DNA from: Daphnia carinata
Lineage: Eukaryota
Length of the DNA stretch: 64,000 nt
NCBI RefSeq assembly: GCF_022539665.2
Contig: NC_081332.1
Span: 682,001-746,000, forward strand
Reading direction: 5' to 3'
Part shown: positions 3,931 through 48,397 of the stretch, in pieces
Layout: every line of letters begins with the position of its first letter
How positions within the stretch are numbered: position 1 is the stretch's first letter
The notes under the pieces: generated by a model
Database searches by the model: none
What the model saw: only the letters and a program-made list of their open reading frames with translations
Told to the model about the DNA's origin: nothing
Program-made: the position numbers and the translations under genes

Positions 3931-4003
3931 CGTACGAGGTGGGGGTCGAACCCACGACCAATTTATTACCAATCTTTTCCTCTAACGACTGAGCTAGCCA
4001 GGA
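3931..4003 (-). pseudogene. tRNA-Lys-like pseudo-tRNA, copy 2
   Basis: Identical to 2854-2926. Confidence 0.7.
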
Positions 4004-4331: not shown

Positions 4332-4418
4332 GCCTCTGTGGCGCAATTGGCTAGCGCGTTCGGCTGTTAGTGTAGGGTTGTTACCGGAAGGCTGGTGGTT
4401 CAAGCCCACCCAGGGGCG
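4332..4418 (+). tRNA. tRNA-Asn(GTT) with a 13-nt intron (4370-4382)
   Basis: Same exons as 3255-3342 except T-loop TTCAA; intron GTGTAGGGTTGTT at position 37/38. Confidence 0.9.
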
Positions 4419-4689
4419 TAGCAATGAAGTGCAAACAAATATGGACACTGCACACCGATTGCACTATCTTTTTTTGGAAGCTTCATAATTATTTGCCTAT
4501 ATCTTGGCCTAGTACTAAGTAATGGAAAACCACATATGCGCTAAATACAACCAGGCTGTCGTAAAGTTAGTTAATGTTGTCCCGTGGCATTCATGTCATT
4601 GATGTCAAACAAATTTGGTTGCCTTACAGACTTACAGATGGCGGTGACCTCACGAATCAATGAGTCAATCTTGTAAAATGCAAACCGAT

Positions 4690-4762
4690 TGTTCTCACCC
4701 AGGGTCGAACTGAGGACCTTCAGCATGTAAAGCCGACGTGATAACCGCTACACTATGAGAAC
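4690..4762 (-). tRNA. tRNA-Val(TAC)
   Basis: As 3614-3686 with one substitution at position 38 (C>T). Confidence 0.93.
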
Positions 4763-4865
4763 GTTCAATTTATGTCACCAGCAACGGTCTTAATCCAATC
4801 ATGACGAAATCAGGAAATTCCAAATTAATAGTCGTCTTTCACATTTGCTTTTCACTTAAATGTCT

Positions 4866-4938
4866 TGTTCCCACCCAGGATCGAACTGAGGACCTTCAGC
4901 GTGTTAGGCCGACGTGATAACCACTACACTATGGGAAC
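4866..4938 (-). tRNA. tRNA-Val(AAC)
   Basis: Identical to 2713-2785. Confidence 0.95.
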
Positions 4939-5006
4939 GCATTTCAGACAACTATTACAGCCAAATATACCAACAGCAATTGACCTGATGAACATTCAAC
5001 ACTACT

Positions 5007-5079
5007 CGTACGAGGTGGGGGTCGAACCCACGACCAATTTATTACCAATCTTTTCCTCTAACGACTGAGCTAGCCAGGA
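5007..5079 (-). pseudogene. tRNA-Lys-like pseudo-tRNA, copy 3
   Basis: Identical to 2854-2926. Confidence 0.7.
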
Positions 5080-5290
5080 CACATGAACGATGAATCCTCT
5101 GTCAACCATGTATTTTTCGGTGTTTGAAATTTTCAGATTATCCGTCTAAAATCTAGTTTTCAACTTACCAAACATCCCTAAACTTATTATAAATCGTTAA
5201 TGAGTTATTTCGTGAGTGAAATAAGTCTAGTTACATGTGTTCACGGCCAGGCAAACGGTACCAGCAAACGAAACCCAATACTGAATCTAC

Positions 5291-10873: not shown

Positions 10874-10966
10874 AACAAATACCAGAAATTTAGGACAGGC
10901 TTAGAAATTTGCAATACCCACGAGTTAAGCGCCGTGCGTAGCGGCGTGGGTAGTGCCGTGCGCAGC

Positions 10967-11981: not shown

Positions 11982-14000
11982 ATGTTAACGAAGAAAAAAG
12001 ATCCAAAAACTTGGAACTCTAATGGAACAACAACAGGGAAATACTTGAAGAAAGAGGCGCCTTCAGATGTACCAAGTAAAAATACCATTCCACTTAATGC
12101 AAATTTTAGTCTATGTCAACTAACTAGCGAAAAATGTATAACAGTCATCAATGTTTGGACCTCGACGAGGACCGTCGACGCTCTGAAGAGCAAGTCTCAG
12201 GCAGCCAAGAAGCTGAGCGGTTCCACCCAGAGCCTGGAAGTGGTGTCCAACATCAAGCACGGTGGCAAGCAGCAGATCCAGACTGGTTACGAAGGGAGGT
12301 ACATACCTGCCAGCGAAGTCAAGGCTGAGCAGCAGCAGCAGCAGCAGCAGCAAAGTCATTTGGTAGGTAGCTTTAAAATATGTTTGTATAATGGTGATTC
12401 GTCATTTGGCATGTTTGCTTGCATTGGCACTTAGCTTGAGTGAATGTTCAAATCCTTGTTTGTGTTGCACGGCTTTTGCCCCCCAATTAGTCTGCCTCCT
12501 TTGACGAGGCCTACGCTGATTACGCCGAGGTATCTGAGAGTGACTCGCTTTCTCTGGCAAGAGGTCTGGGCCTTGAGGGTCATGTTCTGATGAAACCAGG
12601 GTCTGAGCAGTTTCCACCTGTTGCCAACTCTCCTTTATGCCACCCATCACAAAATCCCCCGGCCAATCCACTGAAACTCGTTCTGGTTGATCCCGACTCC
12701 CAGGTATGGCTTTCCTAATTTAGCTTTTTGTTTTATTGTTTCTTAGTCTTGTCTGCTGGTGCACTTATTTCTCTCTCCATGGTGTGGCTGGCAAACGAAT
12801 GAATCTCACATTTCTTTGTTTTCCACAACAAAATGAGCTAAGAAATTTCCTTATTTTGACAATTACAGTTGAGCTCTATGCAGGCAGCTGAACAACAACA
12901 ACAGCAACACATTTATCCTCTTTACCTGTCGGCTTCGGCACGTGAACAGCAACAGCAATTGTTGGTGCTGCAACAACAGTTGGCCCAATTAAGGCTTAGT
13001 GTCCAACAGCATCAACAGCAGCAGCAACAAATTCACCAACAACATTCACCTACCTATGCCAACATCCCTCTTTTACTTTCTAGTAGCGTTAGCGCATCAC
13101 AATCGTCTCTGGCCAGTAACAGCAGCTCCCAACAACAAGAAAATCCTGTCTATCAGAACCTAAGTAAATCAACGAATGCAGGAGCAACAGGTGCTGCAGC
13201 GGTACCAACGACATCGACCAATACGAGTCAAGATAGTGGCTCAGAAGAATTTCCCTTACCACCTGGTTGGTCCATAGATTACACCTTACGTGGACGAAAG
13301 TACTACATTGATCATAACACGCAGACAACGCATTGGTCTCATCCGTTGGAGAAGGAAGGCTTACCCACTGGTACTCATTCTAAATTTGATCCTTTGAATT
13401 CTAATTGAATCATAATTTCTAGGTTGGGAACGAGTTGAATCGAGCGAGTTTGGCATTTATTACGTAAATCACACGACTCGCCACGCCCAATATGAACATC
13501 CTTGTGCACCTCGTTACATTACGTCAGGGTCCTCATCTTTGGCGGATGCGCAAATGCGGCCGTCGAGACCAATGCCTCCAGCCCCTCGCCACACTGAATT
13601 TCATGCACCACCACAAGTGTTGGTGCCGGCCAATCCATACCTTTACGAAGAGATTCCATATTGGCTCCAGTTCTATTCTCGTGCAGCACCTGAACACGAT
13701 CACAAGTTGCGTTGGGAGCTTTTCCGGCTGCCGGAACTCGACTGCTACGACAACGTTCTTAAACGACTCTACAAACAGGAATTGGAGACGATCGTCATGA
13801 ACTACGAAGCTTACCGATCCGCAATGGCGCGTGAACTTGAGCGGAGAAGAGCTGAAGGTCACAACAGACATTTTCCGGGACACCAACGTCAACAACAACC
13901 ACAACAAGCTGGGATGTTGCATCAAGTACCACAACAGCAGCCGTCTAGAAGTCATCTGAAAGAGAAAGCTTTGGCTGGAGACCTTGAAACTAAAGTTTAA
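11982..14000 (+). CDS. sav: Salvador (Hippo pathway scaffold: two WW domains plus SARAH); exons ~11982-12075, 12145-12362, 12869-13370, 13423-14000
   Basis: N-terminus MLTKKK...GKYLKKE, WW1 [35 protein letters not shown]2 [58 protein letters not shown], with GT-AG introns. Confidence 0.95.
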
Positions 14001-21909: not shown

Positions 21910-22965
21910 TTAAGGCCTGAAAGCGCCACGGTAAATACGTTCGTATCCTGTCGACTTGTAGGCAGTGGGCTTGTAGACAGGGACATCGTAGGCTGCCGGG
22001 GATTTGTATGCTGTCTGTTGGTACGAAGTTTCATAGCTGGGCTTGTATTCCGGCTTGTATTCCGGCTTGTATTCCGGCTTGTACTCTGGCTTGTAATCGG
22101 GCTTGTAATCAGCTTGGTATTCCGGCTTGTAATCAGCTTGGTATTCCGGCTTGTATTCGGGTTCGTACTCGGGCTTGTATTCTGGCTTGTAGCTGGGTTT
22201 GTATTCGGGTTTGTAATCTGGCTTGTAGTCCGCCTCGTATTCCGGCTTATACTCGGGTTGGTATTGTGGCTTGTAGTCGGGCTTGTAGTCGGGCTTGTAG
22301 TCGGGCTTGTAGTCGGGCTTGTAGTCGGGCTTGTAGTCGGGCTTGTAGTCGGGCTTGTAGTCGGGCTTGTAGTCGGGCTTGTAGTCGGGCTTGTAGTCGG
22401 GCTTGTAGTCGGGCTTGTAGTCGGGCTTGTAGTCGGGCTTGTAGTCGGGCTTGTAGTCGGGCTTGTAGTCCGGCTTGTAGTCCGGCTTGTAGTCCGGCTT
22501 GTAGTCCGGCTTGTAGTCCGGCTTGTAATCGCCCTTGTAGCCGCCATGGTTGTAATCCCAAGCATGTTCGCCATGACCCTCATAAGCGTCGGCCCACTTG
22601 ACCTATGATTTAATGACATCAAAAAATCAAATAAAGCATTTAGAAATCGTTTGAATAAAAATAATTGGATTAAATGTATACCTTTGTGCGGAAGTTGCCG
22701 TCTTTGTATTGTTCATGACGTGACACGTGATGATCGGAATTGCCACGATTAAAACCGAATTCATATTCACCTTCCGCTGGAACGTTAGCGTACTGGAAAT
22801 AGCCTTCCAACTTGTCGTAAGGACCGTACGGTTTCACTTCGTCAGCGAATGAGATGGCCAAAAGACCCAAAAGGACCAAACTCGTCTGAATACAAATTCC
22901 AATTCAAAACATGAGATATTCTAAATATTTCAAGAATGAATATTTACCACGTAATAGATGTTCAT
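21910..22965 (-). CDS. Secreted cuticle-type protein with a long (YKPD/YKPE)n tail, 3 exons
   Basis: MNIYYV|TSLVLLGLLAISFA...YFQYANVPAEGEYEFGFNRG...FRTK|VKWADAYEGHGEHAWDYNHG followed by YKPD repeats to TAA at 21910; TATA box near 23050. The true reading frame is not among the listed ORFs. Confidence 0.85.
22040..22530. repeat. Coding 12-bp minisatellite (GGGCTTGTAGTC and variants)
   Basis: A run of perfect copies at ~22268-22470, with variant copies on both sides. Confidence 0.97.
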
Positions 22966-27021: not shown

Positions 27022-27587
27022 TTTCTGAATGGTTTTTAACACAAAGCTGTGAGTAACAACAAGGAAGTTCCACCAAAAAGTTTCGGAAACTGTTGATTTT
27101 CTGGGAGGTAAAATTATCGGTACAAAAACGGCCAAAACGCTGAATCGAGTTCAATTCATTCAAGGAGAAAAATTTACCACTTTTAAATTACTCATTTGAA
27201 TGAGAGAGGTGAACCGGTAACAAGAATAACTACAAAAAGCACCGCCAGAGGGCTGCGAAAGTTAGATGTTCGAAGGCGATCAGATACCGCCCTAGTTCTA
27301 ACCATAAACGCGTTAAATAATTGTCGCTTAACAATTCGGTTCCGATATGAATCGGTTAACAAGGTTGTGACATGCCGGTATGACAATCCGTTTTACATAA
27401 AAAAAAAAAAAAATGGCGGAAAAAAAAAAAAAAATCGCACTTTTTTCTCTTTTTTCTACCCGTAGCCATCTATCAGTCGGTTTCGTTATTACAGGCATGT
27501 AAGCAATTTCAGTTAATTGTATCCCATTAGCAGTTAATTGAGTAGCGTGGCTGGAGAACAACGCGTGGCTGGAGGAACAATTGAAAA

Positions 27588-28330
27588 ATGGATAAGATAA
27601 TAAAACAAAAAAATGGTAAGTATAAACATTATTATATTGGTTTTCAATTATTAATTATTGTTTATTAGATCAAATTATGAAGCTGCAGGCCCAATTATTG
27701 GAACAACACAAAATATTAGATAACAGCAAAGCTAAGGATGGTAAGGCCTAATACGTAATGATTCTATTTATTTGCTTTTATTCATTTGTGTTTTGTAGCT
27801 CAAATTTTGAGTCTACAAGCTCAGCTAGGGGAAAAGAACAAATTGGAACGGAACAGTTTCCAAACAGTGAATGAGGTTTTTCCAAACTCATCCCTAACTG
27901 AACATGAGGATGAGTTGGCATTAGGCGAACACAGTCAGGTACCTAAACTTTTCAAATAAGAATGCAAAATAAGTACAGAATTTTAACAAACAATTATTTA
28001 TTGTTTAGTTATTCAGTCTACCACCTGACAGTGTGTTAAAGTTAAATTCTGTTAGTGCTGCACTAAAAGAATTGTTAGTAATAAGTCCATGCAGCGAAGG
28101 AAGTGAACAATTGTGGGACCGTATTTGGGCTGAAAATGGGTGTGGTACGGAAACCCAGAAATAGCACAAGTTCAACATAAAACATGAATTAGGTACTTTT
28201 CGGTTTTTTGTCTATTGAAAAAGTATTTTTAATGCTATTATTTTGCATTCACAGAATTTTAGTGGGGGATCAAGTCAAGTCTGGAAGTGTTACAGGATGG
28301 AAGAGTGAGCCTACAGTTGAAAAACACTGA
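27588..28330 (+). pseudogene. Spliced coiled-coil gene remnant inside the element arm (copies also at ~39212 plus, ~32088 minus, ~47737 minus)
   Basis: MDKIIKQKN|DQIMKLQAQLLEQHKILDNSKAKD|AQILSLQAQLGEKNKLER...|LFSLPPDSVLKLNSV...LWDRIW with GT-AG introns; this copy has an in-frame TAG near 28162. Confidence 0.55.
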
Positions 28331-29084
28331 AAGTGCATTACCATTAAGGTATGAGGTAAAGTAATAGAGTATGCAAATTGTCTAATGAGAAGTACCATCT
28401 TGTGTGAATGAATCCTGTGTAACAGCAATCCTCTATAGTTCTGTCACAGCTAGAAGCCTCAAATAATTCTGCTTCCCTTGCTAAAGAACAACTTGTCCTT
28501 TACACTCAGAGTGTTGGTGAAGCTGGGTACTTAAATGGCCCTAAAGATGTTTCACTTCACTGGCATTGCAGCGATGAACATCATACATGGACTCTTCAGG
28601 TATGAAAGGAATTTTCTTGAAAAATTTTTGAATTTATGATGCTTTTCTCCTCCTTTTTGCCAACCATGTCTAATCAAAAAAAAAAAAAAAAATTATCCAA
28701 TAAGAAAGGATTTTCAGCATACTGGGAACACAACTATCAACAATGCAACTTTCTAGGGGTGCTATTTTATCATTCAAGAGCCTTATACAATGATTTTCAT
28801 CTGCAATTTGTATGGCCTTTCCCAAGCTTCTGCCAGAAGTTGAATCTATAAGTCATGTAAGTCACATGAGCAACAATTGAGATGCTTAATGGTGTTGTTT
28901 TTCTTTTCTCAGCATAGGTTAAAAGTAACATTGGATCTGAAAAGATTCTTGGTTGGGGCAAGACACTGAATAAATTGTAATGATTGAATGGATGACATGA
29001 CATTTCTATACTTAATTTGGATTCCCGAGACGGTATTTTATATTTAAAAAATTGAAGTGCATATCTGGGCTCCCTTCCTTTCCG

Positions 29085-29410
29085 TAGCCCCGTTTCCCCT
29101 TGACTCGTAATAAGCCCGTAGGGGGTCATGCCCCTACTGTACGGTATATATAAAAACAAAATATACCGAGGTTTGGAGGGCTCTGGCCGGAAAGGGGACG
29201 TGGGGGTCCGCTTAGTCCGATGATGTGTTCACGGAGGGCGACGTGGCTACCCACAAATCCGAACTAAAGGTTAATCGCTCCTGTAAAAATGTTCCAAATC
29301 TTCAGCTCTTTTTCCGGCTTCTCTTAGCCAATCACCGGGTAATCTCCCCGGTGGGTCAACAAGGCAGTGTCCCCCCCTGCCTGGGTTGACGGCAACTTTT
29401 GAAAGGGCTA
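29085..29410 (-). ncRNA. Candidate structured RNA, module A (copy in left arm of element 1)
   Basis: Reverse complement of 30279-30604; a GC-rich island with many hairpins. Confidence 0.4.
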
Positions 29411-29625
29411 TTGTGCCTTTTTAAAGTTGCAAAAATAATTGTAATGTGCAGAGAATTGTCAATAAAATTTTTATTATAAAATATTTTTTGCAAAATTTGT
29501 TTATTTCATTGTCTAGTATTCAAGTATTCAATTATTATTAATTACACTCTTTGAATTGTTCAACTTAGATTCAAGGAACAACGTGTAATATCTGGATATT
29601 TTTTGAAGTAATTTGTATTTTGTTT

Positions 29626-29695
29626 TACTCGTATGGGAACCGATCCCCAGACATTCAGCGTGTAACGCCGATGCTCTAACATTGAGCCACGAGAT
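29626..29695 (-). other. Degenerate tRNA-like cloverleaf with a Val(TAC)-like anticodon arm
   Basis: CTCGTGGCTCAATGTTAGAGCA-TCGGCGTTACACGCTGA-ATGTCTGGGGATCGGTTCCCATACGAG. Confidence 0.6.
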
Positions 29696-29792
29696 ATATC
29701 TAAATAGTTTATTATCGCATATCATATGTTATCGTCTAGGATGTTTATGCAGTCTTTCACAACTATATGTTTATCTTTCTATTGCTTGCATA

Positions 29793-29863
29793 AGATTCAT
29801 AGTTCTGTGGTAGAGCCTTTAACTGTCATACCTGTTAGCCTGGGTTCAAACCTCAGTAGATGT
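29793..29863 (+). other. Degenerate tRNA-like element
   Basis: A-box-like TAGTTCTGTGGTAGAGC and a perfect T arm CTGGG-TTCAAAC-CTCAG. Confidence 0.5.
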
Positions 29864-29980
29864 GTAAAAATAAGGTAGAATAAATGTAGAAGAGTATATT
29901 GCAGAATTGCATTTCAGTTTTATTCTAAGTGTAAATGCAAGTCCACAAGTGACTAGAAAAAAGCCAACTTGTCATCATAT

Positions 29981-30049
29981 GATTCATGGCTCACTAGTAG
30001 AGTATCGGCGCGGTATGCCGAACATCCAGGGTTCGTTCCCTGGAGAATA
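29981..30049 (+). other. Degenerate tRNA-like cloverleaf
   Basis: TGGCTCACTAGTAGAGT, anticodon-type hairpin TCGGC-GCGGTAT-GCCGA, T arm CCAGGG-TTCGTT-CCCTGG. Confidence 0.6.
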
Positions 30050-30278
30050 ATAGAATGCTTACAGATAAACGATAAACCAATGGAAACAATGCTTACCATC
30101 AAAGGTGACTAAAACAAATAAAGCAAAGCAAAAAAAAAAAGTTGATAAATGTAATGTGTGAACACTGTTAACACAGACAATGAAATAAACAAATTTTGCA
30201 AAAAATATTTTATAATAAAAATTTTATTGACAATTCTCTGCACATTACAATTATTTTTGCAACTTTAAAAAGGCACAA

Positions 30279-30604
30279 TAGCCCTTTCAAAAGTTGCCGT
30301 CAACCCAGGCAGGGGGAGACACTGCCTTGTTGACCCACCGGGGAGATTACCCGGTGATTGGCTAAGAGAAGCCGGAAGAAGAGCCGAAGATATGGAACAT
30401 TTTTACAGGAGCGATTAACCTTTAGTTCGGATTTGTGGGTAGCCACAGAGCTCTCCGTGAACACATCATCGGACTAAGCGGACATCCACGTCCCCTTTCC
30501 GGCCAGAGCCCTCCAAACCTCGGTATATGTTGTTTTTATATATACCGTACAGTAGGGGCATGACCCCCTACGGGCTTATTACGAGTCAAGGGGAAACGGG
30601 GCTA
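30279..30604 (+). ncRNA. Candidate structured RNA, module A (~326 nt)
   Basis: Stems GTCAAC/GTTGAC with AGGCAG/CTGCCT, CACCGGG/CCCGGTG, GCCGGAA/TTCCGGC, TTAGTTCG/CGGACTAA, CGGTATAT/ATATACCG, GTAGGGG/CCCCTAC, closed by TAGCCC/GGGCTA. Confidence 0.45.
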
Positions 30605-33600
30605 CGGAAAGGAAGGGAGCCCAGATATGCACTTCAATTTTTTAAATATAAAATACCGTCTCGGGAATCCAAATTAAGTACAGAAATGTCATGTCATCCA
30701 TTCAATCATTACAATTTATTCAGTGTCTTGCCCCAACCAAGAATCTTTTCAGATCCAATGTTACTTTTAACCTATGCTGAGAAAAGAAAAACAACACCAT
30801 TAAGCATCTCAATTGTTGCTCATGTGACTTACATGACTTATAGATTCAACTTCTGGCAGAAGCTTGGGAAAGGCCATACAAATTGCAGATGAAAATCATT
30901 GTATAAGGCTCTTGAATGATAAAATAGCACCCCTAGAAAGTTGCATTGTTGATAGTTGTGTTCCCAGTATATGAAAATCCTTTCCAATTGGATAAATTTT
31001 ATTTTTAGATTAGACCTGCTTGGCAAAAAGGAAGAGAAATTCTTTGTCATAAATTCAAAATTATTTGAAGAAAATTCCTTTCACACCTAAAGAGTCCATG
31101 TATGATGTTCATCTCTGCAACGGCAGCAAAATCTTAGGGCCATTTAAGTACCCAGTTTCACCAACACTGTGAACGTAAAGGACAAGTTGTTCTTTAGCCA
31201 GAGAAGCAGAATAATTGAGGCTTCTAGCTGTGACAGAACTATAAAGGATTGCTGTTGTATCAGATTCATTAACACAAGATGGTACTTCTCATTAGACAAT
31301 TTGCATCACTCTATTACTCTACCTCACACCTTAACGGTAATGCACTCTCAGTGTTTTTTCAACTACAGGCTGACTCTTCCATCCTGTAACACTTCCAGAC
31401 TTGACTTGATCCCCCCCTAAAATTCTGTGAATGCAAAATAATAGCATTAAAAATACTTTTTCGATAGACAAAGAACCGGGAAGTACCTAATCCATGTTTT
31501 AGGTTGAACTTGTGCCATTTCTCGGTTTCCGTACCATACCCATTTTTGGCTCAAATATGGTCCCACAATTATTCAGTTCCATCGCTGCATGGACTGATTA
31601 CGAACAATTCTTTTAGTGCAGCACTAACAGAATTTAAATTTAACACACTGTGTGATGGTGGACTGAATAACTAAACAATAAATCATTGTGTGTTAAAATT
31701 CTATGCTTATTTTGCATTCTTATTTGAAAAGTTTAGGTACCTGACTGTTTACGCCTAATGCCAACTCATCCTCACGTTCAGTTAGGGATAAGTTTGGAAA
31801 AACCTCCTTCACTGTTTGGAAAGTGTCCCGTTCTAACTTGTTTTTTTTTCCCCAGTAACTGAGCTTGTAGACTCAAAGTTTGAACTAAAAAACAAAAATG
31901 AATAAAACAACACAAATACAATCATTATGTGTTACCATCCTTAGTTTTGTTGTCACCTAATATTTTCTGCTGTTGCAATAATTGAGCCTGCAGGTTCATA
32001 ATTAGAGCCAAAAAACAATAATTAATAATTGAAAACTAATGTAATAATCTTTGTACTTACCATCCTTATCTTTTATTATCTTATCCATTTTAACATATTT
32101 TTCTCCAGCCACGCGTTTTTCTCCACCCACGCTACTCGACTAACTGACAATGGGATCCAATGGACTCAAATTGACATGCCAGTAATAACGATTCTGACCG
32201 GTAGCTGGCTACGGATCGTAAAAAAAAAAATCACAATTTTTTTTTTTTTTTTTTTGTTTAAAACGGATTGCCATAAGTACTGTCTTATCCATAATTTTAG
32301 AAGACATCCTTTATGTCACATCAATTAAAATACTAATCTTTCTAATAGATTCATCCAATTGTGAGCAAGAGTCAGTTTTGGGATTAACAGCCCTCAACAG
32401 ATACAACAACGAACCATATTGAAGTTGTAGCACAAAGTTCGTACAGCCGTGGTTATTCCCGAACACCTATGCAATAGGAACTGCTTGACAGGCAAAAGGT
32501 ACGCTAAAATCCCATAAATTTTGGTGTAATATATATATTTTGCCATCCAGGCTTTGTGGCAACTGCCATGTAGCTTCTTATTGCATGATAGCACAAGTAT
32601 ACTCCATCATCATGATGTTGCAAATGGTAATGCATTTCTACAGAGTTAGCTTGGCTTTCTAATTAAAGTCAAACATTTGTCATATTAGGCAGAACATTCC
32701 TTAAAGACTACAGTGATATGGCGAGCAGGACTTCGGAAAATGTAGCTGGCCTTAAAGCGTCACCTCTGGGTCATGGCCAACCTTGGCACCGAAATTCATC
32801 AAGGCAAGTCAATCCTACTCAAGTGCTAGATATTTTACTGATGAGATGATTCTGTTTGTGTATATAGGATATGGTTTGGACCCTACCTACATGAAAGCAT
32901 ATCATCCTACACTTTTTCCAAGAGTTCTTGATGACGTCTAAGCTGCCTATCCTTATCCCCATGACGATTGTTAAAACAAGGTTTAATTAAGGTAAATTGA
33001 AGACCTTCTTTTACATTAATTTTATAACTGTTTTGAATGATGCAGGCTGGCGATTGGGAAGACATTTAATACACAATGGAAAGTCACGGCATGGAATGTT
33101 AATTGCCTGTCGCCTTTTTATCCAAACTGATGGTTTGTGGTAAAATCTTTGACATCACCAGAAACGGACTGTTGCCAAAGTTTTTGAGCCAGCACGTGTC
33201 CGCACGTCACGCCTCCCAAAAGTCGGACTTAGTTATTGATTCAGTCATTAATAAACCGTTTGGTGCACTGGGATCGAGCCCTAAAAACGGCCATCTGTCG
33301 CCATCTAGGGAAAGTCTAGTTCTGATTAATAAACAAGCCAGATTTCCTTTTTTTTTCAGAAACCTAGATTGCTAGAAAAACAAATGATTTTGGATTTGAA
33401 TTCAAGGCTGATGGCAGAAAACCAGTTTGTTTTCAATTGGAAATAATAGCGGTTCACGGAAAGTATATTTTTTGTCATTTCGAAAATCGAATTAAGAATC
33501 CAAGACTGTTTGACAGGATTAGCTTAGTATCGCACAAACTTTCGTGGCGTTCATTTGAATAATTTCACTGGTTTTTGTTGCATTCGTAGTATTCAAAGGA

Positions 33601-35191
33601 TTCACATTCAATTTTATAGTGCGTTTTTATTTTCAGGAACATTATAGAAATCCAGCAATCTAGGGTAGGATAAATGTTTCAGTTCTCTTCTACCAGATGT
33701 CAGCATGTTGAGGCAGTCTCATACTGTTTTGCTGTTGCATCATACATGTGTGTTTGCAAATGTTTGGTAACATCTTCGTTTATTTTGTTTAAGGAATACA
33801 GTTGCGTTTCGGCGTGGAGTTCAAGAATCGCTAGGAAATTCGTTAGGGAATTGGTTGCATGGAATTCTGGTAGGATATTGCAATTTTCTTGCAGAATGAT
33901 TAGAATAACAAAAATAAGTTGGAAACAGTGACCGAAAGATGAAAGTGTTATGTTTATTCATTAATTTAAACAGCTGCAAAGAGACAAAAAACCAATAGTG
34001 TTGATTGCTCATTTGCCTAGTTGCAGATGCTAACATGCTTCTTTTTGAAAAAGAGAAAATAAGGCATGTTAGAAGAAATATTGATGGATTACTCTGGAAG
34101 GAAGGACCCTTCTGTTTTAGTTTGCTGGCTATCAACATCTTTGTCTCCCACAGGTATCTGCCTTTCTTTCTCTACAAGATTCTGTACAATTTTTTTTATC
34201 GTTTTTCTTCATTTGTTGCAAACGTTGGGAACATATTACTCTAAAAGCAAAACCAGTTTGTGATGTGATGGCATTAGCTTTCACAGAAGACGTGGATCTT
34301 GGAACCTTTCCAGATCTTACATCAGCCATGAAAGTGGTGAAAGTATTGATGAATGGATATATTGAGTTTTACAATAATATCAATAACAGTGCAAACTGAG
34401 TTAGCAAAGTAATTATTATTGATTCCCCCGATACCCCGCTCGATAAACAATATTGTAAAAATACATACTAACCTCTGCAATTGATTTCCCTCAGGAAAAG
34501 CATCATGAAATCCGAGAGCAGTGGGCTGTGCCAGAAAACAAACGAAGCCGTGCCGTAGAGAAAAGGTAGAAAAAAAAACTATTTTTATTTAAAAATCAGT
34601 TTACTAAGATTGTTTCGATTGTGAAGTGCTTGTGTCGATGTTTGATGTTCGCTGTTTCTCCTTGTTAAAAAATGGCGAATTTTTTCCGCTAGCTTGCCCT
34701 GTTTTTACAATAAAAAAAAAATCTGAAAATGTATTGTTTGTTTTGTGTAGCTGTGGTGATCGCGATTTTTTCTTTTGACGTTACATGCATCACCGCCGTC
34801 AAAAGCGAGTGGCAGGTAGAAGAAACGAATAATGGCTGTCGGCACTGTAAAAAAAAAAAACACCCTAGAGAAAAATTGAGGAATTTGCTTTACCACTAAT
34901 GTACAATATCTGGTAGCATAGAAAAACCCTCGTCTGAGAAAAAAAAACTATATATTGGTATTGGGAAAGCCAAGTGGCCTGGGTCCTGGCTTCGATGTTC
35001 CAAGCCAGCCAAGCCTTTGCCTGAACATTGGTACAGGCAAAGAAAGTTAAGCGTTGATGTTTTTGGCCTGGGTCTAAGTTTCGATGATCTGAGCCAGTGA
35101 ATGGTCAGGCAACGAAAAGTATCTTGCTTTTTTTTTTCCAAGTCCAACAGGTATTCCTAAATTCAGTATTAAAAATAGTAATATTTCAAAA

Positions 35192-35261
35192 TGTGCAATA
35201 GCTCAACGGTAGAGCATTGGCTTCAGAAGCCGTAGGCCTAGTGTTCAATACTCAGACACAT
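35192..35261 (+). other. Degenerate tRNA-like cloverleaf
   Basis: TAGCTCAACGGTAGAGCA A box, TGGC-TTCAGAA-GCCG arm, GTTCAATAC T-loop. Confidence 0.55.
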
Positions 35262-35421
35262 ATTTTTCTTCACAAGAAACGCTTATTTGTCGAAATATTG
35301 AAAAATGGCAAAAAAAAAACGAAAAATTCTTTCCTTTCGACGATCTGTAGCATCCCAGAATTTTTGGAACGACCACACCATCGTCCCAGAATTTTTCTGG
35401 GACGGCAACGCAAAGCAATAT

Positions 35422-35492
35422 TAACCACACTGGGATTCGATCCACAGACCTTTCGCACTGTAGGATAGCATGCTACCAATATGCCATAACTA
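35422..35492 (-). other. Degenerate tRNA-like element
   Basis: ATGGCATATTGGTAGCATGC ... GTGGATCGAATCCCAG, similar to 41245-41313. Confidence 0.5.
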
Positions 35493-35749
35493 TCCTTACA
35501 TATGTAGTTTGAGATTTTCATAGCTATGTAGTTATTTGATAAATTTAAAAAAAGAACAAAAATTTAAAAAAAGGACAGTATAATACAAACATTCCCAATA
35601 ATCGTTTCCTTAAAAAAATGAATTTGTTCTGTATTCCGTTATACGGGTTAGTAAAATAAACACGTAAACAAATTTTCCAAGATGTTCTTGGATACGAATT
35701 TTGATTTTGGATTACTCCAAAATACGCCAACCAAGTGAACGACATTGAG

Positions 35750-38380
<2,631 letters not shown>

Positions 38381-38618
38381 CATTAAACAAAACCATGTTA
38401 AAGTAATCACACTACGAATAGGAGAAAACAAATACCTTTTGACCCTGGAGAGAAAAACATATATCAGAAAGAAACAAATTAGATTATATAGAGACCAGAA
38501 CAAAGATGGATGCTACTAGAATGTACTAACCCGAATAATTTTTTTGGCCACCATATCACCAATGCTCTTGTATCATATGATGCACATATTATATTTCGAC
38601 AGGAATTTCGATTTAATA

Positions 38619-38975
38619 GCCCTGCAGGTAAATACCGCAATGCAGTCCCACCTTTTCCAGTTGTCCCTTTCCTAAAAAAAAGACATTCAGCCACCTATGG
38701 TGCGTTTTCTAAAGTTCAATTCGATGGATTGTCCGTTTTTTTTTAACACGAAATCCAGGACAGGCCTGTGTTTTGTTCCTTTTTATCATCATGTACTTAC
38801 ATAAGTAATCGATCAAATGTCATTTCTGGCTGTCACATAATCTAGGAATAAAAAAAACAATAAATCCATCGAATTAAACTTTAGAAAACGCCCCATAGGT
38901 GGCTGAATGTCTTTTTTTTAGCAATGTGACAACCGGAAAACGTGGGACTGCATTGCGGTATTTACCTGCAGGGCC
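38619..38975. repeat. Palindromic MITE-like structure (~112-bp inverted arms); part of the arm is repeated at 47979-48059
   Basis: GCCCTGCAGGTAAATACCGCAATGCAGTCCCAC...CACCTATGG...TTCGATGGATT is the reverse complement of 38864-38974. Confidence 0.85.
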
Positions 38976-40701
38976 ATGCCCTTATATCATATCATGCACA
39001 TATCTATGGCAATCCGTTTTACACAAAAAAAAAAAATTATTTCGCCAAAAAAAAAAAAAAATTACACTTTTTTCTTTTTTTCGACACGTAGCCATCTACC
39101 GCTCAGACTCGTTATTACTGGCGTAGGCAATTTCAGTCTATTGGATTCCATTCGCAGTTAGTTCAGTAGCGTGGATGGAGAATAACGCGTGGCTGGAGGA
39201 ACAATTGAAAAATGAATAAGATAATAAAACAAAAAAATGGTAAGTATAAACATTATTATATTGGTTTTCAATTATTAATTATTGTTTATTAGATCAAATT
39301 ATGAAGCTGCAGGCCCAGTTATTGGAACAACACAAAATATTAGATAACAACAAAGCTAAGGATGGTAGGCCTAATACGTAATGATTCTATTTATTTGCTT
39401 TTATTCATTCATGTTTTGTAGCTCAAATTTTGAGTCTACAGGCTCAGCTAGGGGAAAAGAACAAGTTAGAACGAGACACTTTCCAAACAGTGAAGGAGGT
39501 TTTTCCAAACTCATCCCTAACTGAACATGAGGATTAATTGGCATTAGGCGAACACAGTCAGGTACCTAAACTTTTCAAATAAGAATTCAAAATAAGTATA
39601 GAATTTTAACAAACAATTATTCATTATTTAGTTATTCAGTCTACCACCTGACAGTGTGTTAAAGTTAAATTCTGTTAGTGCTGCACTTAAAGAATTGTTA
39701 GTAATAAGCCCATGCAGTGAAGGAACTGAACAATTGTGGGACCGTATTTGGGCCGAAAATGGGTGTGGTACAGAAACCCAGAAATGGCACAAGTTCAACA
39801 TGAAATGTGGATTAGGTACTTTTTGGTTTTTTGTCCATCGAAAAAGTATTTTTAATGCTATTATTTTGCATTCACAGAATTTTAGCAGGGGAACAAGTCA
39901 AGTCTGGAAGTGTTACAGGATGGAAGAGTCAGCCTACAGTTGAAAAAAACACAGAGTGCATTACCATTAAGGTGTGAGGTAAAGTAATAGGGTATGCACA
40001 TTGTCTAATGAGAAGTACCATCTTGTGTGAATGAATCCTGTATAACAGCAATTCTTTATAGTTCTGTCACAGCTAGAAGCCTCAAATAATTCTGCTTCCC
40101 TTGCTAAAGAACAACTTGTCCTTTACGCTCAGTGTTGGTGAAGCTGGGTACTTAAATGGCCCTAAAGATGTTTCACTTCACTGGCATTGCAGCGATGAAC
40201 ATCATACATGGACTCTTTAGGTATGAAAGGAATTTTCTTGAAATTTTTTGAATTTATGATTAAGCTTTCCTCCTCCTTTTTGCCAACCAGGTGTAATCTA
40301 CAAAAAAAAATTTATCCAATAGGAAAGGATTCAGCATACTGGGAACACAACTATCAACAATGCAACATTCTAGGGGTTTTATTTTATCATTCAAGAGCCT
40401 TATACAATGATTTTCATCTGCAATTTGTATGGCCTTTCCCAAGCTTCTGCCAGAAGTTGAATCCATAAGTCATGTAAGTCACATGAGCAACAATTGAGAT
40501 GCCTAATGGTGTTGTTTTTCTTTTCTCAGCATAGGTTAATATTAACATTCGATCTGAAAAGATTCTTGGTTGGGGCAAGACACTGAATAAATTGTAATGA
40601 TTGAATGGATGACATGACATTTCTATACTTAATTTGGATTCCCGAGACGGTATTTTATATTTAAAAAATTGAAGTGCATATCTGGGCTCCCTTCCTTTCC
40701 G

Positions 40702-41027
40702 TAGCCCCGTTTCCCCTTGACTCGTAATAAGCCCGTAGGGGGTCATGCCCCTACTGTACGGTATATATAAAAACAACATATACCGAGGTTTGGAGGGCTC
40801 TGGCCGGAAAGGGGACGTGGATGTCCGCTTAGTCCGATGATGTGTTCACGGAGGGCTTTGTGGCTACCCACAAATCCGAACTAAAGGTTAATCGCTCCTG
40901 TAAAAATGTTCCAAATCTTCAGCTCTTCTTCCGGCTTCTCTTAGCCAATCACCGGGTAATCTCCCCGGTGGGTCAACAAGGCAGTGTCTCCCCCTGCCTG
41001 GGTTGACGGCAACTTTTGAAAGGGCTA
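40702..41027 (-). ncRNA. Candidate structured RNA, module A (copy in element 2)
   Basis: Reverse complement of 30279-30604 with few substitutions. Confidence 0.4.
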
Positions 41028-41244
41028 TTGTGCGTTTTTAAAGTTGCAAAAATAATTGTGATGTGCAGAGACTTGTCAATAAAATTTTTTTTATAAAAAT
41101 ATTTTTTGCAAAATTTGTATCTTTATTGTCTGTGTTTGTGTTCACACTTTACAGTTATAAACATTTATTTTATTTCCCTTGCTCAATTCACCTTTTTTTT
41201 TTATGCCACCTTTTATGATAAGCATTCTTTCCATTGGTTTATCG

Positions 41245-41313
41245 TTTATCTGGGATTTGAACCACTAACCTATACCTTTCCAGCATAGCGCGCTACCGTT
41301 GCGCCATGACTGT
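41245..41313 (-). other. Degenerate tRNA-like cloverleaf
   Basis: TGGCGCAACGGTAGCGCG A box, CTATGC-TGGAAAG-GTATAG arm, GTGGTTCAAATCC B box. Confidence 0.6.
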
Positions 41314-41403
41314 TCATATAAATATAAGTTATGATCTTGATGCCTATGTTAAAATAAGTTCGTCATTAGGCTATTATGGAATGCCTATCATGATGATAAC
41401 AAA

Positions 41404-41472
41404 TTATAGATGGCATAATGGCAAAGCTACTGAATTGCATGCAAGATTACTTAGGTTCGATCCCCATATCAG
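41404..41472 (+). other. Weak tRNA-like element (A box plus B box)
   Basis: TGGCATAATGG ... AGGTTCGATCCC at tRNA-like spacing; stems are poor. Confidence 0.4.
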
Positions 41473-41612
41473 TCAATTGAAAATCTAAATAAATAAATGC
41501 AAAAAATAAATGATGTTACAAAGTATTTTATTTTCCCTCCTTCCACCCACAAATCCACCACTATACATATTCCACATAATACAACATACAATACATACAT
41601 ATATACACTTAA

Positions 41613-41931
41613 AACTAACCCGTTGGCTGCCACGCCATCTTAACTACGGTCGCTACGTCGCTATCATAGGGATAGCGACCAAGGGGGCCGGGTAGGCCGG
41701 GCTGATACGATGATGAGACCTTTACGGGAATGCACACCCCAGGTCTCATCTATCGCATCGATCAAGGGAAAGTCCCTATGGTGCATTGCCTTTGGGGCCA
41801 TTCGCCCAATCTTGGGCAGTGGCGCTGCTCCACTTCATAGCAGATAGCCATGGAGCAGAACAGCGCGGCCCGTCCCTGTCAAGCTACAAAAAAAAGGGGA
41901 TAAAAGGTGGGTGGCAGCCAACGGGTTAGTT
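41613..41931 (+). ncRNA. Candidate structured RNA, module B (~319 nt), alternatively a MITE
   Basis: A perfect 21-bp terminal inverted repeat encloses at least four internal hairpins and two loop-strand complementarities. Confidence 0.5.
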
Positions 41932-41964
41932 AAGAATAAACATTGCAAAACACACACAATACCA

Positions 41965-42165
41965 AAACGACGAGGCGAAGACGCGGCTACCACGAAGCAA
42001 AGACGGGATGGCGGGCGAGGCGAAGGCGAAGGCGGGTGACCACGAGGCGAAGAAGGGATGACCGGCAAGTCGTAGACGGGACGACGGGCGAGGCGAAGAC
42101 GGGACGACGGGCGTGGCGAAGACGGGACGACGGGCAAGGCGAAGACGTGAAGACGGGCGCGGAGA
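41965..42165. repeat. GC-rich degenerate minisatellite (GAAGACGGGACGACGGGCGAGGC-like)
   Basis: Repeated GGCGAAGACG(G) units. Confidence 0.8.
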
Positions 42166-44170
42166 AGAGGAAAAAGGCTTTGTTCTGTAACGTAAATGTA
42201 AAGAAAAAGAATTACTTAGTTGGAAATATAAGATTGCTGATGTAGCCAAATGTATGAAAGCAATTTGACTTACTTCTGTTGTCCAATGGCTAGAAATACT
42301 GTAGGGCCAGCACATAGGCAGCAGACAGCAAAGAGATGGCAGTCCTATGGTTGAATATTCAATTTATAAAACAAACAAACTATACTAGGTATGAGAAAAA
42401 TTTACGAATACCAATAGAAATTGTATTGAGGTACATGTCTATGTCTGTTGGTAGGCTAAGTAGAGATTACAATTGTTGAAATGGCTGTGGTTACAGTTGG
42501 CGCTGCAGCATAAGACGAATTTGGTGCACCAGTTAGATTACAATCGACAGGCAACCATGAGCGGGTAAAGATTAGAAGAATAATATTATGGTATTCGTAC
42601 CCATAGGATTTGCATCTTTGGTGACATTCCTCAACGGGAAGTATCCTTTACAAATGAAGTTTCATGAGCTTAACCTTAAAAGAAAAATCCGCTAGTGAGA
42701 TTCCGATAACAATACATTAGTCTTATACCTCTCAATGAGCACCAGAATAGTTTGATGAATGCAACATAATGGGTTGTGAATAGTTGTTTGTTTTGACAGC
42801 TGACATAGGTGATTACAAGACATGTAACATAAAAACCAAGCATTTTGTGGGCTTCACTTGCAAAACACACTCTAGGACGAAAACACACAGAACCACCATT
42901 AGATTTGCTTGAATTTTCCCTTGGAATGTGACATACTTCACAAAAACTTTCGAACACAGGTTTCACTACCCCCACAGTCACCAACTAAACAGTAGCACAG
43001 CAGCGTCATCTTGTTTTCCAATTAAGAACCGAAATTTTCATAAAAATTGAAAATCTTGTTTTTTCGAGACGGGAACTGCACTGATGTGAACTCTTTTAAC
43101 AAACTTCTTGAGCGTGAATCGAGCGTGAATGGCAAATATGGCCCCCCCCCCCATATTTGTACCATTTCAATTTTATTTAAACAAATGTAGCGACCAAAAC
43201 CATGAACAGCATTTTTAAAGTATAGCGATTTAACGTGTTTTTGAGCCCGGATTAGTCACTGTTTTTTATTTATTTATCCAAAAACCTAGATATTTCTAGG
43301 AAAATACATAATTTGGGTTCAGAATTCAAAAAGAAGCTTGGTTGCACTTCACATGTAGAAATTTTGCAACTTCACACATGTCTGGATTTCAAGCTAGTAA
43401 ACATTAAGTCTGTCTGACAATACAATTTTCTTTCTTGAACAGCTGCACGCTATTTCGGCCATATTTCACGGAAAAAATTCTCCACTGAGACAAGGGCATC
43501 GATTGTGCGTTATCGTGCCTATTTCAATTAACCAATCACCAGACAAGGAAAAAAATTCTTCGAAGCAACTACAAAGCTACATGGCTGCCAATATATACTG
43601 CTCCTATTTGTGATAACAATGTATGAAAGGTAGTATCAGCAAATAGTTTTATTGTTGTTTTATTTCTAACCTAACCTTATAATGTAAACCTCCCTTTTTC
43701 TTTTGTTCGTGATGAAGATGGAATTTTCTGTCCTACTTGTTTCTGTCATAGACTGTGTGATCCACCGTTACAAAACTCTACATCAGCAACAATCGTTTCT
43801 CACTGCTCAGAACCTGCAAATGTCGTGAATGAAAAAATTTTAGTTAAAAATAATTTAAAAAATAGTTGTAACACCAAGCATTATTAAACGACTTGCCTAA
43901 CTAAGGAAACCGCTGGAACCACAATGTTTGTCTCCACAATCCTGAAATGATTGAAATGACAAGCTTTGCTTTATTTCATTAATTCTAATTTTAAAAAAAG
44001 GAAAAAGCCTAACTGCATGGTTGAGCAGTTTGGCTTGATGCCTTTTTTAAAAAGCAAGAAGGTAGCAATAACCATTATCTCAATGTGCCTGTCGTGCTGA
44101 CTTTTAAGGACACGAGTTACCGTGAAACCAAAGAAAAATAAAATAGGTAATTCATTGATGGGTCTTGCTG

Positions 44171-44815
44171 TTAGATGTTTCTAGTACGTCGAGGTGGTGG
44201 TGGTGGCGATGACGTATCCTCCTTAACAAGCTCAGGTTCGCTAGTTGTTTTCTTGCCACCACGTGTCCGTTTCGTGGCCGGCACGGCCGGAGGTTCATCC
44301 GCCATTGTTGCGGCAGATACTGCCGGGCCCTTCTTTTGTCGTGAACGTTTGGCGGCCGGTGCTTTCTCTTCCTTTTCTTTTGCAGTGGCGGCCACAGTCT
44401 CAATGGTCGGGGTCGCGTTCCAGCTGGACAGAGACTTTCTTCTCAGCCGGTGAAGCCGTCTTCCGCGTCGAACGGGTGATCTGACTGGCGAATGCGCCGT
44501 TTCGGCCACGTCAAAATGAACTTTGAGTGCGCCCTTTGCGCAAGTAGATCGTCCATTTTTGACGGATGTGACTCGCGATCCATCGTTCGCCTCCGGCTCA
44601 TCTGGCACGTGATTGGCATGGATGTCGACAGCGTGTCCGTTCCCTTCGTGTAACATTTCTACATCATCCAATCCAGCAACGTGTTTATTGGCTTTCGTTT
44701 CACCACGACGCCTTTTGCCATCAGGCGCTTCCTTCTCCGGAACGGAGACACGTTTGACAGCACCTCGACGTGTTGTTTTCTTCGTCACCTCGCCATCGGC
44801 TTTTATTGTTCATCT
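44171..44815 (-). pseudogene. Captured terminal exon encoding a basic low-complexity region of an unidentified nuclear protein
   Basis: 205-codon open frame rich in K/R/S/P/T, preceded by a splice acceptor and by in-frame stops just upstream; lies inside element 2. Confidence 0.45.
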
Positions 44816-44959
44816 ATAATAAGACAGTAAAACACCATTAGGCATAAAAACTCTTAATTCATATATTATATTTCATACCTTACATGATTCGTGAGTTGAT
44901 TGCTAGCATATTCTTCTGACAGAAGCTTCGGAAGAGACATTTACGATTTTCGTTTACGC

Positions 44960-46285
44960 TCACCATGGATGCTGGTAGACTAGACATTTAAAGTTAAGAC
45001 ACTTTGCCCAATTCCACCAGTTTTGATTCTTACTTGTAAGTTGTTATTGCACGAGAATGCAGCGACGAAGTCCGCCGTCTTTTTGCTGTCGACAAAAACG
45101 ATAGTCTTGGCTTCACAGAGATCTTGTAAAACTTCGATCAGCTTAGCTCTCTTATCTCTTTTCGTGCACTGAAAAAAAACACCTGTTCAACATCCGAATT
45201 GGTGCAACCAACAATGCCTGTTGTGAAGAATATGTAGTCTTCCATGTACGTCGCAGCCAGCGCTTGTACTTCATCTAGGAATGTAGCCGAAAACATACAA
45301 ACACGACGGATTCCCTACAGAGAAACAAATAGTATTACATCAGTATAATCTCATACTCAAAAGCCATCGAGGACATACTTTCGGATGCATCGTTGGATGA
45401 TTAACAATCTTTTCAACATTGGGACCGAAACCCATATCAAGCATTCGATCAGCATCAACCAAAACTTAAAACCTGACTCCCGAGAAGTCAAATACTTCAA
45501 GGTCGAAAACTCCTTGAATCGCCCCGCGGTCGCGGCAAAAATATTGCACCCAGCTTGAAGATTTGACCGCTGATGGCTCGTGAGAGTTCCTCCATATATA
45601 ATCACAGACTTTAAAACCGAACTGTAGGAGAATTTACACGCCTCGCGGTCAATTTGAATGCCCAATTCACGAGTGGGTGCGACAATTACAACTTCTGGCT
45701 TTTGCCCCATGGCATGAGGCGCACCAGCAACACCTTGTTCTAACAATATGTTCATAACCGGTACCAAGTACGCCGCCTGCATAAAAAAACGTAAAATTTT
45801 AGATGACTTAATCAACGAAGGGTTTATTGAGTATCTTAGATGCAATTGGACCTTTTAGTAGTCGCAATCACAGGCGTGCCCACTCAAAATTACTTTTACT
45901 TCAACTTACCCAGTTCATACCGACCCATTCGAATAAAGTCAGTACGAGGGCATCAAGGTTTCAAAATTACACAACGTTAATTAATTGGATTACCGTTTTG
46001 CCGGAGCCCGTGACAGCACAAGCAATTAAATCTCTTTTGGCAAGAATAACTGCAACTGAAGCTTTCTGAATAGGTGTTGGTTTTATGTAGCCAGAATTCT
46101 TAATGTTTTGACGTAGTAGTTGGCGCAGGCCGGCTTCTTCGAATGATGTTATGTATTGAGGTACATCTTTTCCTGTAACCTGAAGCAAACCCAATAGATA
46201 TTTTTAAATCATAAAATACAGTTTCGAGAAATGGCTTACCTGGAGGACGACTTTATCAAAATTGTTAAAGCGTACCCAAAGACGA
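44960..46285 (-). pseudogene. vas: Second vasa-like fragment (Q motif through STSIHG), cargo of element 2
   Basis: VTGKDVPQYITSFEEAGLR, GYIKPTPIQK, CAVTGSGKT, APTRELGIQI; LDEAD is mutated to LVDAD; introns colinear with 36395-37690; both ends truncated. Confidence 0.88.
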
Positions 46286-48397
46286 TGCCCTTAAAACAGT
46301 TCCTTTTCATAGCATATCACAGCTTCCAGACTGTATTGATCATGAGGCTTTCCATCTTCCGTGAAGCTGCAACATCAGGATCCCATGTATCCTACACAAC
46401 ATACTTTTTCGTCAAATTGAACTAACAGAGCTCAATAAGATCCCTGAACAGTATTAAAAAAAAAGGTAGATTTAAGTGATCATGACTTGTCATTCATAGA
46501 TTAGTACTACCAGCCAATTACGCAGACAGCGACAGAGTTGCTGTTTTGTAAATAAAAATATCAATTTGATTTAATGATCTGCTTTGTTTGCATCAGTTGT
46601 TCACCGATAATTGGAAGATAGCTCATTGAATGTTTCATCCACTTCTGTTTTTCTGCTGTTGTTTGTGATTCACAAGATTTTTTTCTCTCAGTTCTCTGTC
46701 GGCTAATAGACAAACATTCCTTTCATACCTAAAGAGTCCATGTATGATGTTCATCTCTGAAATGGCAGCAAAGTAAAATATCTTTAGGGCCATTTAAGTA
46801 CCCAGTTTCACCAATACTCTGAACGTAAAGGACAAGTTGTTCTTTAGCCAGAGAAGCAGAATTATTTGAGGCTTCTAGCTATGACAGAACTATAAAGGAT
46901 TGCTGTTGTACCGGATTCATTAACACAAGATGGTACTTCTCATTAGACAATATGCATAACTCTATTACTTTACCTCTCACCTTAATGGTAATGCACTCTC
47001 AGTGTTTTTTCAACTACAGGCTGACTCTTCCATCCTGTAATACTTCCAGACTTGACCCCCCCGCTAAAATTCTGTGAATGCAAAATAATAGCATTAAAAT
47101 TACTTTTTTAAAAGACAAAAAACCGAGAAGTACCTAATCCATGTTTTATGTTGAACTCGTGCAATTTCTGGGTTTCCGTACCACACTCATTTTCAGCCCA
47201 AATACGGTCCCACAATTGTTCACTTCCTTCGCTGCATGGATTTATTACTAACAATTCTTTTAGTGCAGCACTAACAGAATTTAACTTTAACACACTGTCA
47301 GGTGGTAGACTGAATAACTAAATAATGAATAATTGTTTGTTAAAATTCTATACTTATTTTGAATTCTTATTTGAAAAGTTTAGGTACCTGACTGTGTTCG
47401 CCTAATGCCAATTTATCCTCATGTTCAGTTAGGGATGAGTTTGGAAAAACCTCCTTCACTGTTTGGAAAGTGTCTCGTTCTAACTTGTTCTTTTCCCCTA
47501 GCTGAGCCTGTAGTTTCAAAATTTGAGCTACAAAACACGAATGAATAAAAGCAAATAAATAGAATCATTACGTATTAGGCCTACCATCCTTAGCTTTGTT
47601 GTTATCTAATATTTTGTGTTGTTCCAATAACTGGGCCTGCAGCTTCATAATTTGATCTAATAAACAATAATTAATAATTGAAAACCAAAATAATAATCTT
47701 TATACTTACCACTTTTTTGTTTTAATATCTTATCCATTTTTCAATTGCTCCTCCAGCCACGCAGTTTTCTCCAGCCACGCTGCTCAATAAAATGCAAATG
47801 GCATACAATTAACTGAAATTGCATACATACTTGTAATAACGAAACCGACGGGTAGATGGCTACGGGTGGAAAAAAGAGAAAAAAAGTGTGATTTTTTTTT
47901 TTCCGCCATTTTTTTTTTTTTTCATGTAAAACGGATTGCCATACATATCATATTTTCGACAGGAATTTCGATTTAATAGCCCTACAGGTAAATACCGCAA
48001 TGCAGTCCCACCTTTTCCAGTTGTCACTTTCCTAAAAAAAGACATTCAGCCACCTATGGCTTAAAATTTTTTTCGGTCAGTGTATGTAGAGAATTTACTA
48101 GAAATGTGACCGTTAGATGACGATAGTAGTAAAACAGAAAAAAAGGCCAAATATTTTTTATTTTTATTTGGGTAAAACAGCCATATATACAACCATGCTT
48201 TTATTTTTTGCTACTATCATTTCAAGTTTGAAAGTTGCACACGGGCAAATTAAAAATTGAACTTTAAATTCACGCCCTTGCTCGTGGGGAAAGGAAAATT
48301 TACGATTAAAACTCTTTGAGAAGCAAATTGGGAAGCCTGTGCAATTCCGATACAAAGCAAACACTACTATTTTTCGTAAATTCAAAACATTGGCGAA

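Follow-up and report, generated by a model that had tools for sequence, protein, structure and literature searches.

A 64,000-nucleotide stretch of the Daphnia carinata genome (contig NC_081332.1, positions 682,001 to 746,000, numbered here from its first letter and called the window) holds two related transposons, and within them lie two non-coding modules, A and B, which are selectively conserved and present in many copies in two other organisms. The explanation that we prefer, tentatively and with slightly less than an even chance of being right, is that the modules are folded RNA elements at the 3' end of spliced RNA polymerase II (Pol II) transcripts, and that tRNA-like sequences (mimics) stand head-on beyond them as barriers made of RNA polymerase III (Pol III) factors. 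These transcripts would run inward, that is, toward the mimics. An earlier note on this DNA had proposed a transposon-borne cassette in which a module is transcribed from, or released by, the mimic upstream of it.

Results

Conservation of the modules in other organisms

Cross-species cover was taken from six of the 23 public sequencing runs listed, used as contigs at 80% likeness, with four runs in a broad comparison and four in a closer one. No RNA data set was among the runs listed, a fact with no bearing on expression. The runs of organisms B and C cover positions 40616-41077, the region of module A, and positions 41540-41930, that is, module B with its flank. Neither the inner arm of the transposon (40308-40615) nor the tRNA-likes (41232-41462) are covered in these two organisms, where lack of cover at 80% likeness does not prove absence. 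In the closer comparison the cover of module A extends from about 40665 to 41040, both in these two organisms and in a zooplankton metagenome. Its left boundary is sharp near 40665, and it is joined there to many differing flanks, also within the D. carinata run. The depths of the modules are in the thousands, against 45-60 (run X12) and 13-28 (run X14) for long contigs; a summed depth is not a copy number, and we read it only as "many copies". In the other species a hairpin of variable length in module A is replaced (loose ends at 40757).

Since the modules are covered at 80% likeness while the proteins of the transposon arms are only 44-64% identical between species, the comparison suggests either constraint on the modules or a separate origin of the modules. 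That they are shared with organisms B and C supports the earlier view of them as non-coding, and both look constrained.

Anatomy of modules A and B

The window holds three copies of module A, at 29048-29438 (plus), 30251-30641 (minus) and 40665-41055 (plus), the strands being those of the putative RNA, and these copies are about 97% alike. The earlier note had found all three, with a size of ~320 nt; the conserved unit is longer (about 40665-41055). The copies are not independent recurrences either, because they sit in duplicated 2.1-kb arms: the arrangement recurs through arm duplication, and module B is the only independent case. The third copy, which is the one covered in organisms B and C, is predicted to have a long 5' stem, several hairpins and a terminal hairpin at 41009-41047. 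Upstream of it, at 40634-40656 on the plus strand, the motif ATTCCC is followed by ACGGTAT, and several of the otherwise differing flanks keep this pair at an almost equal distance, as read by eye from the loose ends. The pair may be a 5' splice site (with GT at 40650) or a promoter element. At 30 nt past module A all three copies have an AATAAA (41078-41083 on the plus strand in copy 3), in an AT-rich zone with four T4/T5 runs on the other strand.

Module B (41613-41931, with the minus strand weakly favoured) is closed by a 20-bp stem (41614-41633 with 41911-41930) around a multi-branched interior. Three splice-like signals stand on its minus strand: a 5' splice-like site (41962), a branch-like site (41929) and a pyrimidine tract with AG (41884). 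The flank of the module (41527-41612, minus), also covered in organisms B and C, has on the minus strand a cluster of TGTA motifs and then an AATAAA; the window has no other TGTA cluster except in one coding tandem repeat. We give AATAAA, TGTA and the splice-like motifs the functional meanings that they generally have. On the other side a GC-rich 23-nt repeat (41960-42170, no strand assigned) is joined to module B in other copies as well, with joints from 41932. The wider repeat region (41940-42245) has a high depth in organisms B and C and encodes an arginine-rich ORF (open reading frame) of 101 aa on the plus strand, with no Pfam match.

Both modules fold better than their shuffles, as the earlier note had supposed, with z-scores of -4.1 and -2.6 on the two strands of module A, and of -10.3 and -9.4 on those of module B, where the plus strand is the better one. 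Treating the two modules as unrelated was also justified: homology between A and B is not convincing, as 200 shuffles equalled their best local alignment 3 times in one orientation and 46 times in the other. The sequence flanking A or B shows no target-site duplication.

Known RNA families

The Rfam search that the earlier note had called for gave no family match to either module at E up to 10. RNase P and MRP RNA were set aside on this ground and because a motif scan found none of their conserved-region motifs. 7SK RNA has few copies and pairs a GAUC in its 5' stem; here there is again no Rfam match, module A contains no GAUC and the copies are many, although a distant homologue is conceivable. 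For the small self-cleaving ribozymes (hammerhead, hepatitis delta virus-like, twister), the earlier note having named a ribozyme as one option, there is likewise no Rfam match, and crude core patterns are absent on both strands. A motif scan for telomerase RNA gave no template for TTAGG repeats that is at least 7 nt long. An origin from a ribosomal DNA spacer was dropped because the flanks vary, and the AG of a supposed conserved 3' splice site at 40704 reads GG in organisms B and C, so that this site was dropped too.

In crustaceans, RNase P RNA is embedded in an intron of a Pol II host unit, has no Pol III signals and occurs in several copies in Daphnia, according to an excerpt of PMC4287351. 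The modules resemble this case in being a candidate structured RNA of 300-400 nt in a Pol II unit and in being multi-copy in Daphnia; they differ in having no Rfam RNase P/MRP match or scanned motif and in having far more copies.

We found no description of modules A and B in the literature covered, which leaves out most subscription papers as well as Repbase and Dfam, so that a repeat-library entry may exist. Three DNA patterns had no match in viral contigs and two had none in genome contigs, and 120 metagenome loci from a 16-mer scan were chance matches of too short a probe.

The carrier transposon

Self-comparison of the window gives four related arms, at 27379-29530, 30062-32275, 39005-41252 and 46713-47943. 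Element 1 (27379-32275, no strand assigned) is a foldback made of two left ends head-to-head, of a non-autonomous IS3EU type, with termini TATG(A/G)C..GCCATA. Element 2 (39005-47943, likewise without strand) belongs to the same family, has terminal inverted repeats of 1.2 kb and holds gene fragments. In element 1 the inner arms (28720-29045 against 30643-30968) are 99.7% alike and the outer arms 86.5%, as might result if gene conversion or fold-back repair had recently acted on the palindrome.

Excerpts of PMC10045372 and PMC12730594 give IS3EU/GingerRoot elements TA..TA termini (TAYGG..CCRTA) and a target duplication of 6 bp, and the ends are used to classify non-autonomous transposon copies (excerpt of PMC4455052). 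In the window the tips read TATGGC in three of the four arms and TATGAC in the fourth, and the inverted arms are 1.2-2.1 kb long, as expected for the long terminal inverted repeats of this group. The direct repeat CATATC flanks element 2 (38999-39004 and 47944-47949); element 1 has no duplication, so that one of the two elements shows it. A paralogous flank near 38585 holds a single copy of the element 2 target site, with one substitution. A palindromic MITE-like element (miniature inverted-repeat transposable element) with 128-nt arms lies at 38584-38977, with a partial second copy at 47944-48059, and element 2 is situated between these related flanks.

A Pfam integrase or transposase domain was found in none of the 124 ORFs or 9 read-through frames of and around the elements, and for this reason we class the carrier by its ends. 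Judged in this way, it is a non-autonomous, pack-type, IS3EU-like DNA transposon family, dispersed in Daphnia, and the earlier claim that the modules are borne by a transposon is supported. A Polinton/Maverick identity was rejected, since none of these 124 ORFs is a protein-primed polymerase, integrase or capsid gene.

Each arm has a spliced, multi-exon ORF that reads inward, at 27588-28314 (plus), 32002-31368 (minus), 39292-39937 (plus) and 47657-47019 (minus), with RefSeq models in D. carinata. One arm exon has 81 member sequences in 11 clusters, the members being gene models; every cluster representative is from D. carinata, and the sequences lie on at least 9 contigs. A profile search found relatives of the arm protein in D. 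magna and D. sinensis, with 44-64% identity. Exon 4 of the arm is 50% identical over 50 aa to the N-terminus of the D. magna protein P0166. This protein has no Pfam match itself, and the Atlas places it closest to HTH and rva_4 integrase clusters (scores 0.91-0.96); a word search did not find a longer homologue of it, and there was no match among solved structures. The bacterial matches of the profile search (P0164 and P0170) were set aside as chance repeats, and viral contigs gave no confirmed locus for the arm protein.

In summary, the carrier shares with IS3EU/GingerRoot the termini, the long terminal inverted repeats, the inward genes and an arm exon akin to an HTH / rva_4 integrase-type protein, and one of its two elements has the 6-bp target duplication. 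It differs in that the present copies have no transposase domain and contain conserved structured modules and tRNA-like boxes, on both of which the excerpts of PMC10045372 and PMC12730594 are silent.

Two broken copies of a DEAD-box helicase gene, presumably vasa-like, lie at 35740-37900 and 44956-46253 and are 92% alike; the second is cargo of element 2. Element 1 is adjoined on the left by a short 18S rRNA fragment (27257-27312; Rfam E 1.5e-09, under the gathering score).

tRNA-like sequences

Five tRNA-likes with A and B boxes are found where the earlier note had placed them. Three of them are head-on to a copy of module A: 29626-29696 (minus) to copy 1, 29980-30050 (plus) to copy 2 and 41243-41313 (minus) to copy 3. 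The tRNA-like at 41404-41474 (plus) adjoins module B, and the fifth is at 29793-29863 (plus). Two further tRNA-likes, not named in the earlier note, convergent and outside both elements (35192-35262, plus, and 35423-35493, minus), have no module, and therefore the pairing of mimics with modules is not exclusive.

A scan of 27001-48100 with the A/B box consensus gave 5 matches when 2 mismatches were allowed and 8 when 3 were; in 30 shuffles the corresponding means were 0.07 and 0.47, and the maxima 1 and 2. All five tRNA-likes have A and B boxes at tRNA spacing, as in a type-2 Pol III promoter, which makes them candidate promoters. As tRNA genes they fail: none of the seven tRNA-likes in 27-48 kb qualifies by a cloverleaf with acceptor stem, whether called by ARAGORN or by the Rfam gathering score. 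ARAGORN called none of the five module-side sequences, and the Rfam tRNA scores for three of these are 23.9, 22.1 and 18.7 bits, with a gathering score of 29. The tRNA-likes are 42-61% alike among themselves and several have A-rich trailers. The gaps between mimic and module measure 139-228 nt and are 74-78% AT, close to the ~140-230 nt of AT-rich DNA described before, and the T-runs noticed there are present as T4/T5 in all four gaps.

Probable strand of the modules

To compare the strands, the pairing partner of each listed substitution was looked up in the predicted folds; for module B the list is drawn from the best-supported 40 of 140 differences. Among pairs of module A with a probability of at least 0.5, the inward strand keeps pairing in 10 of 15 cases, the outward strand in 2 of 11 (Fisher p 0.02). 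In helices that are predicted identically on both strands, the changes favour the inward strand by 6 to 1 in module A and by 2 to 0 in module B (8 to 1 together), a split which is not significant alone (p 0.125 for A, 0.5 for B) and comes from sites that are not independent. The substitutions thus fit G-U wobble pairing on the strand running toward the tRNA-likes, which is suggestive, not decisive.

Further features agree with this bias. The outward strand has four T4/T5 runs before module A and T5 runs inside it at 121 and 254, while the inward strand of A is clear of T-runs to position 353; the inward strand is also that of the arm gene; and it has poly(A)-type signals (AATAAA) 30 nt past A and 80 nt past B. 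For B the TGTA cluster behind it and the splice-like signals of its minus strand agree as well. The earlier note, which had the modules facing away from the mimics, was probably on the wrong strand. For module B the strand evidence is weaker than for A, because its plus strand has no T-run, and there the earlier direction may hold.

Other features of the window

A tandem tRNA array at 2583-5290, unrelated to the modules, has a unit of about 1076 bp with two tRNA-Val, an intron-bearing tRNA-Thr and a tRNA pseudogene; the tRNA-Thr intron differs among the units. The array ends at a BEL/Pao element with an open ORF of 1771 aa (5585-10900). The salvador ORF at 13416-13997 is 100% identical to a D. 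carinata protein, and a 12-bp tandem repeat at 21910-22602 encodes (DYKP)n, probably a structural protein.

Discussion

In the explanation that we prefer, an inward Pol II transcript would start near the tip of the element, be spliced, traverse module A, which would lie just ahead of the poly(A) signal, and end in the AT-rich zone, while a second transcription unit would bring module B in from the opposite side. The most likely job of the modules would be to control the element's own RNA in cis, by way of its stability, export or translation.

TFIIIC sites that act as barriers are known. The divergent pair of mimics, having both boxes, may bind TFIIIC and TFIIIB, and any Pol III transcript from the mimics would halt at the T-runs before reaching the modules. 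By analogy with yeast, the bound factors could stop Pol II from either side. Such a barrier would keep inward transcripts out of the opposite inverted arm and limit the long double-stranded or hairpin RNA that triggers silencing. In an excerpt of PMC5052057, yeast tRNA genes are roadblocks for Pol II through TFIIIB and TFIIIC. The likeness to our case is that A/B-box elements lie just beyond the putative Pol II 3' ends; the difference is that here they are degenerate mimics in an animal transposon, head-on to the transcript and known from sequence alone. The Pol II stop in yeast lies upstream of the tRNA genes, with no clear peak at their 3' ends (same excerpt). A barrier on both sides is proposed because a divergent pair shows its upstream face each way.

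Several observations weigh against this explanation, in addition to the one-sided yeast stop, the missing transposase domain and the non-significant split in shared helices. Compensatory double changes in module A are absent from the 121 pairs of the three window copies and from the 26 listed cross-species variants; in module B there is at most one two-sided change (41648 with 41689), and several of the listed changes disrupt pairs that are predicted on either strand. Helices show no deficit of variants, with 7 of 26 in shared paired positions (122 of 391) and about 8 expected. Compared with shuffles, the fold of A is slightly better on the outward strand than on the inward one (z of -4.7 and -3.3), the plus strand of B has no T-run, and AATAAA is frequent in the gaps on both strands, the outward one included. 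Finally, the 97% likeness of module A within the window is not above that of the inner arm (97.5-99.7%).

The modules could instead be older, independent Daphnia families of repeats or small-RNA genes which a pack-type IS3EU element has captured, an alternative that we take seriously and still regard as rather unlikely. They might be like short interspersed nuclear elements (SINEs), MITEs or solo long terminal repeats, or genes with an own upstream promoter; the tRNA-likes would then be incidental pseudogenes or SINE heads, and the symmetry would come from arm duplication. The sharp boundary of module A with its many flanks, also in D. carinata, fits this, and so do the other captured fragments in element 2, such as the DEAD-box helicase pseudogene, and the 20-bp inverted repeat that closes module B as in a MITE. 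Two tRNA-likes without a module, and the low likeness of all of them together with the A-rich trailers of several, point the same way. On the other hand, no target-site duplication is visible around A or B, random insertion would not yield a motif pair at a near-fixed distance in the flanks of A, and two unrelated modules have one layout around a divergent tRNA-like pair. Like tRNA-derived SINEs, the present sequences have a boxed tRNA-like head, an A-rich trailer and a body shared across species; here the heads are heterogeneous, terminators come before the modules and no target duplications surround head and module together.

It is improbable that the modules work as DNA-level cis elements, that is, as protein-binding palindromes or single-strand hairpins whose fold signal comes from clustered inverted repeats. 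That both strands fold well, that there are no compensatory pairs and that helices are not depleted of variants would all be expected from such elements. Against them stand the wobble-compatible bias of changes on one strand, the variable-length hairpin replaced in other species and the distance of 1.7 kb between the modules and the element tips.

A tRNA-like beside a structured non-coding RNA is known from the 3' end of MALAT1/NEAT1 with mascRNA, from dicistronic tRNA-snoRNA (small nucleolar RNA) genes and from the tRNA-driven small nuclear RNA genes of trypanosomes. The mascRNA and dicistronic types need the tRNA-like on the strand of the RNA itself, with no terminator between the two; here the mimic is probably on the opposite strand and downstream, with T4/T5 runs in all four gaps. 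The earlier proposal, in which the downstream module would be made as a discrete ~320-nt RNA on the mimic's own strand by Pol III or RNase P/Z that the mimic recruits, is very doubtful. In its favour, the boxes are intact and much more frequent than expected by chance, A on its outward strand (z of -4.1 to -4.7) ends in a T6 run and the plus strand of B is free of T-runs with the best z. Against it, four T4/T5 runs lie between mimic and A, two T4 ahead of B and two T5 inside A, of 11 well-predicted outward pairs the listed variants break 9, B has no T-run terminator after it within 41613-41990, the mimics are uncovered at 80% in organisms B and C where the modules are covered, and release by RNase P/Z is unsupported because it needs the mimic on the strand of the product.

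The carrier is a known kind of transposon, and the modules have no Rfam match or description that we could find. Animal cut-and-paste DNA transposons are not generally known to hold long structured RNA elements under tighter conservation than the protein they encode. With low probability, the modules may be the first of a class of structured RNAs encoded by animal transposons which would act directly for an IS3EU-type DDE element, be it as its scaffold, its guide or a decoy against silencing, made by Pol II and fenced against double-stranded RNA by divergent mimics kept for this purpose. If the modules are merely captured repeats, the value of the finding drops to two undescribed Daphnia repeat families. 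Two modules with many copies and homologues in other species are a ready test set for covariation analysis and stranded RNA-seq. If the mimic pair is indeed a barrier, this would be a long-armed transposon that uses binding sites of Pol III factors against the trigger of its own silencing.

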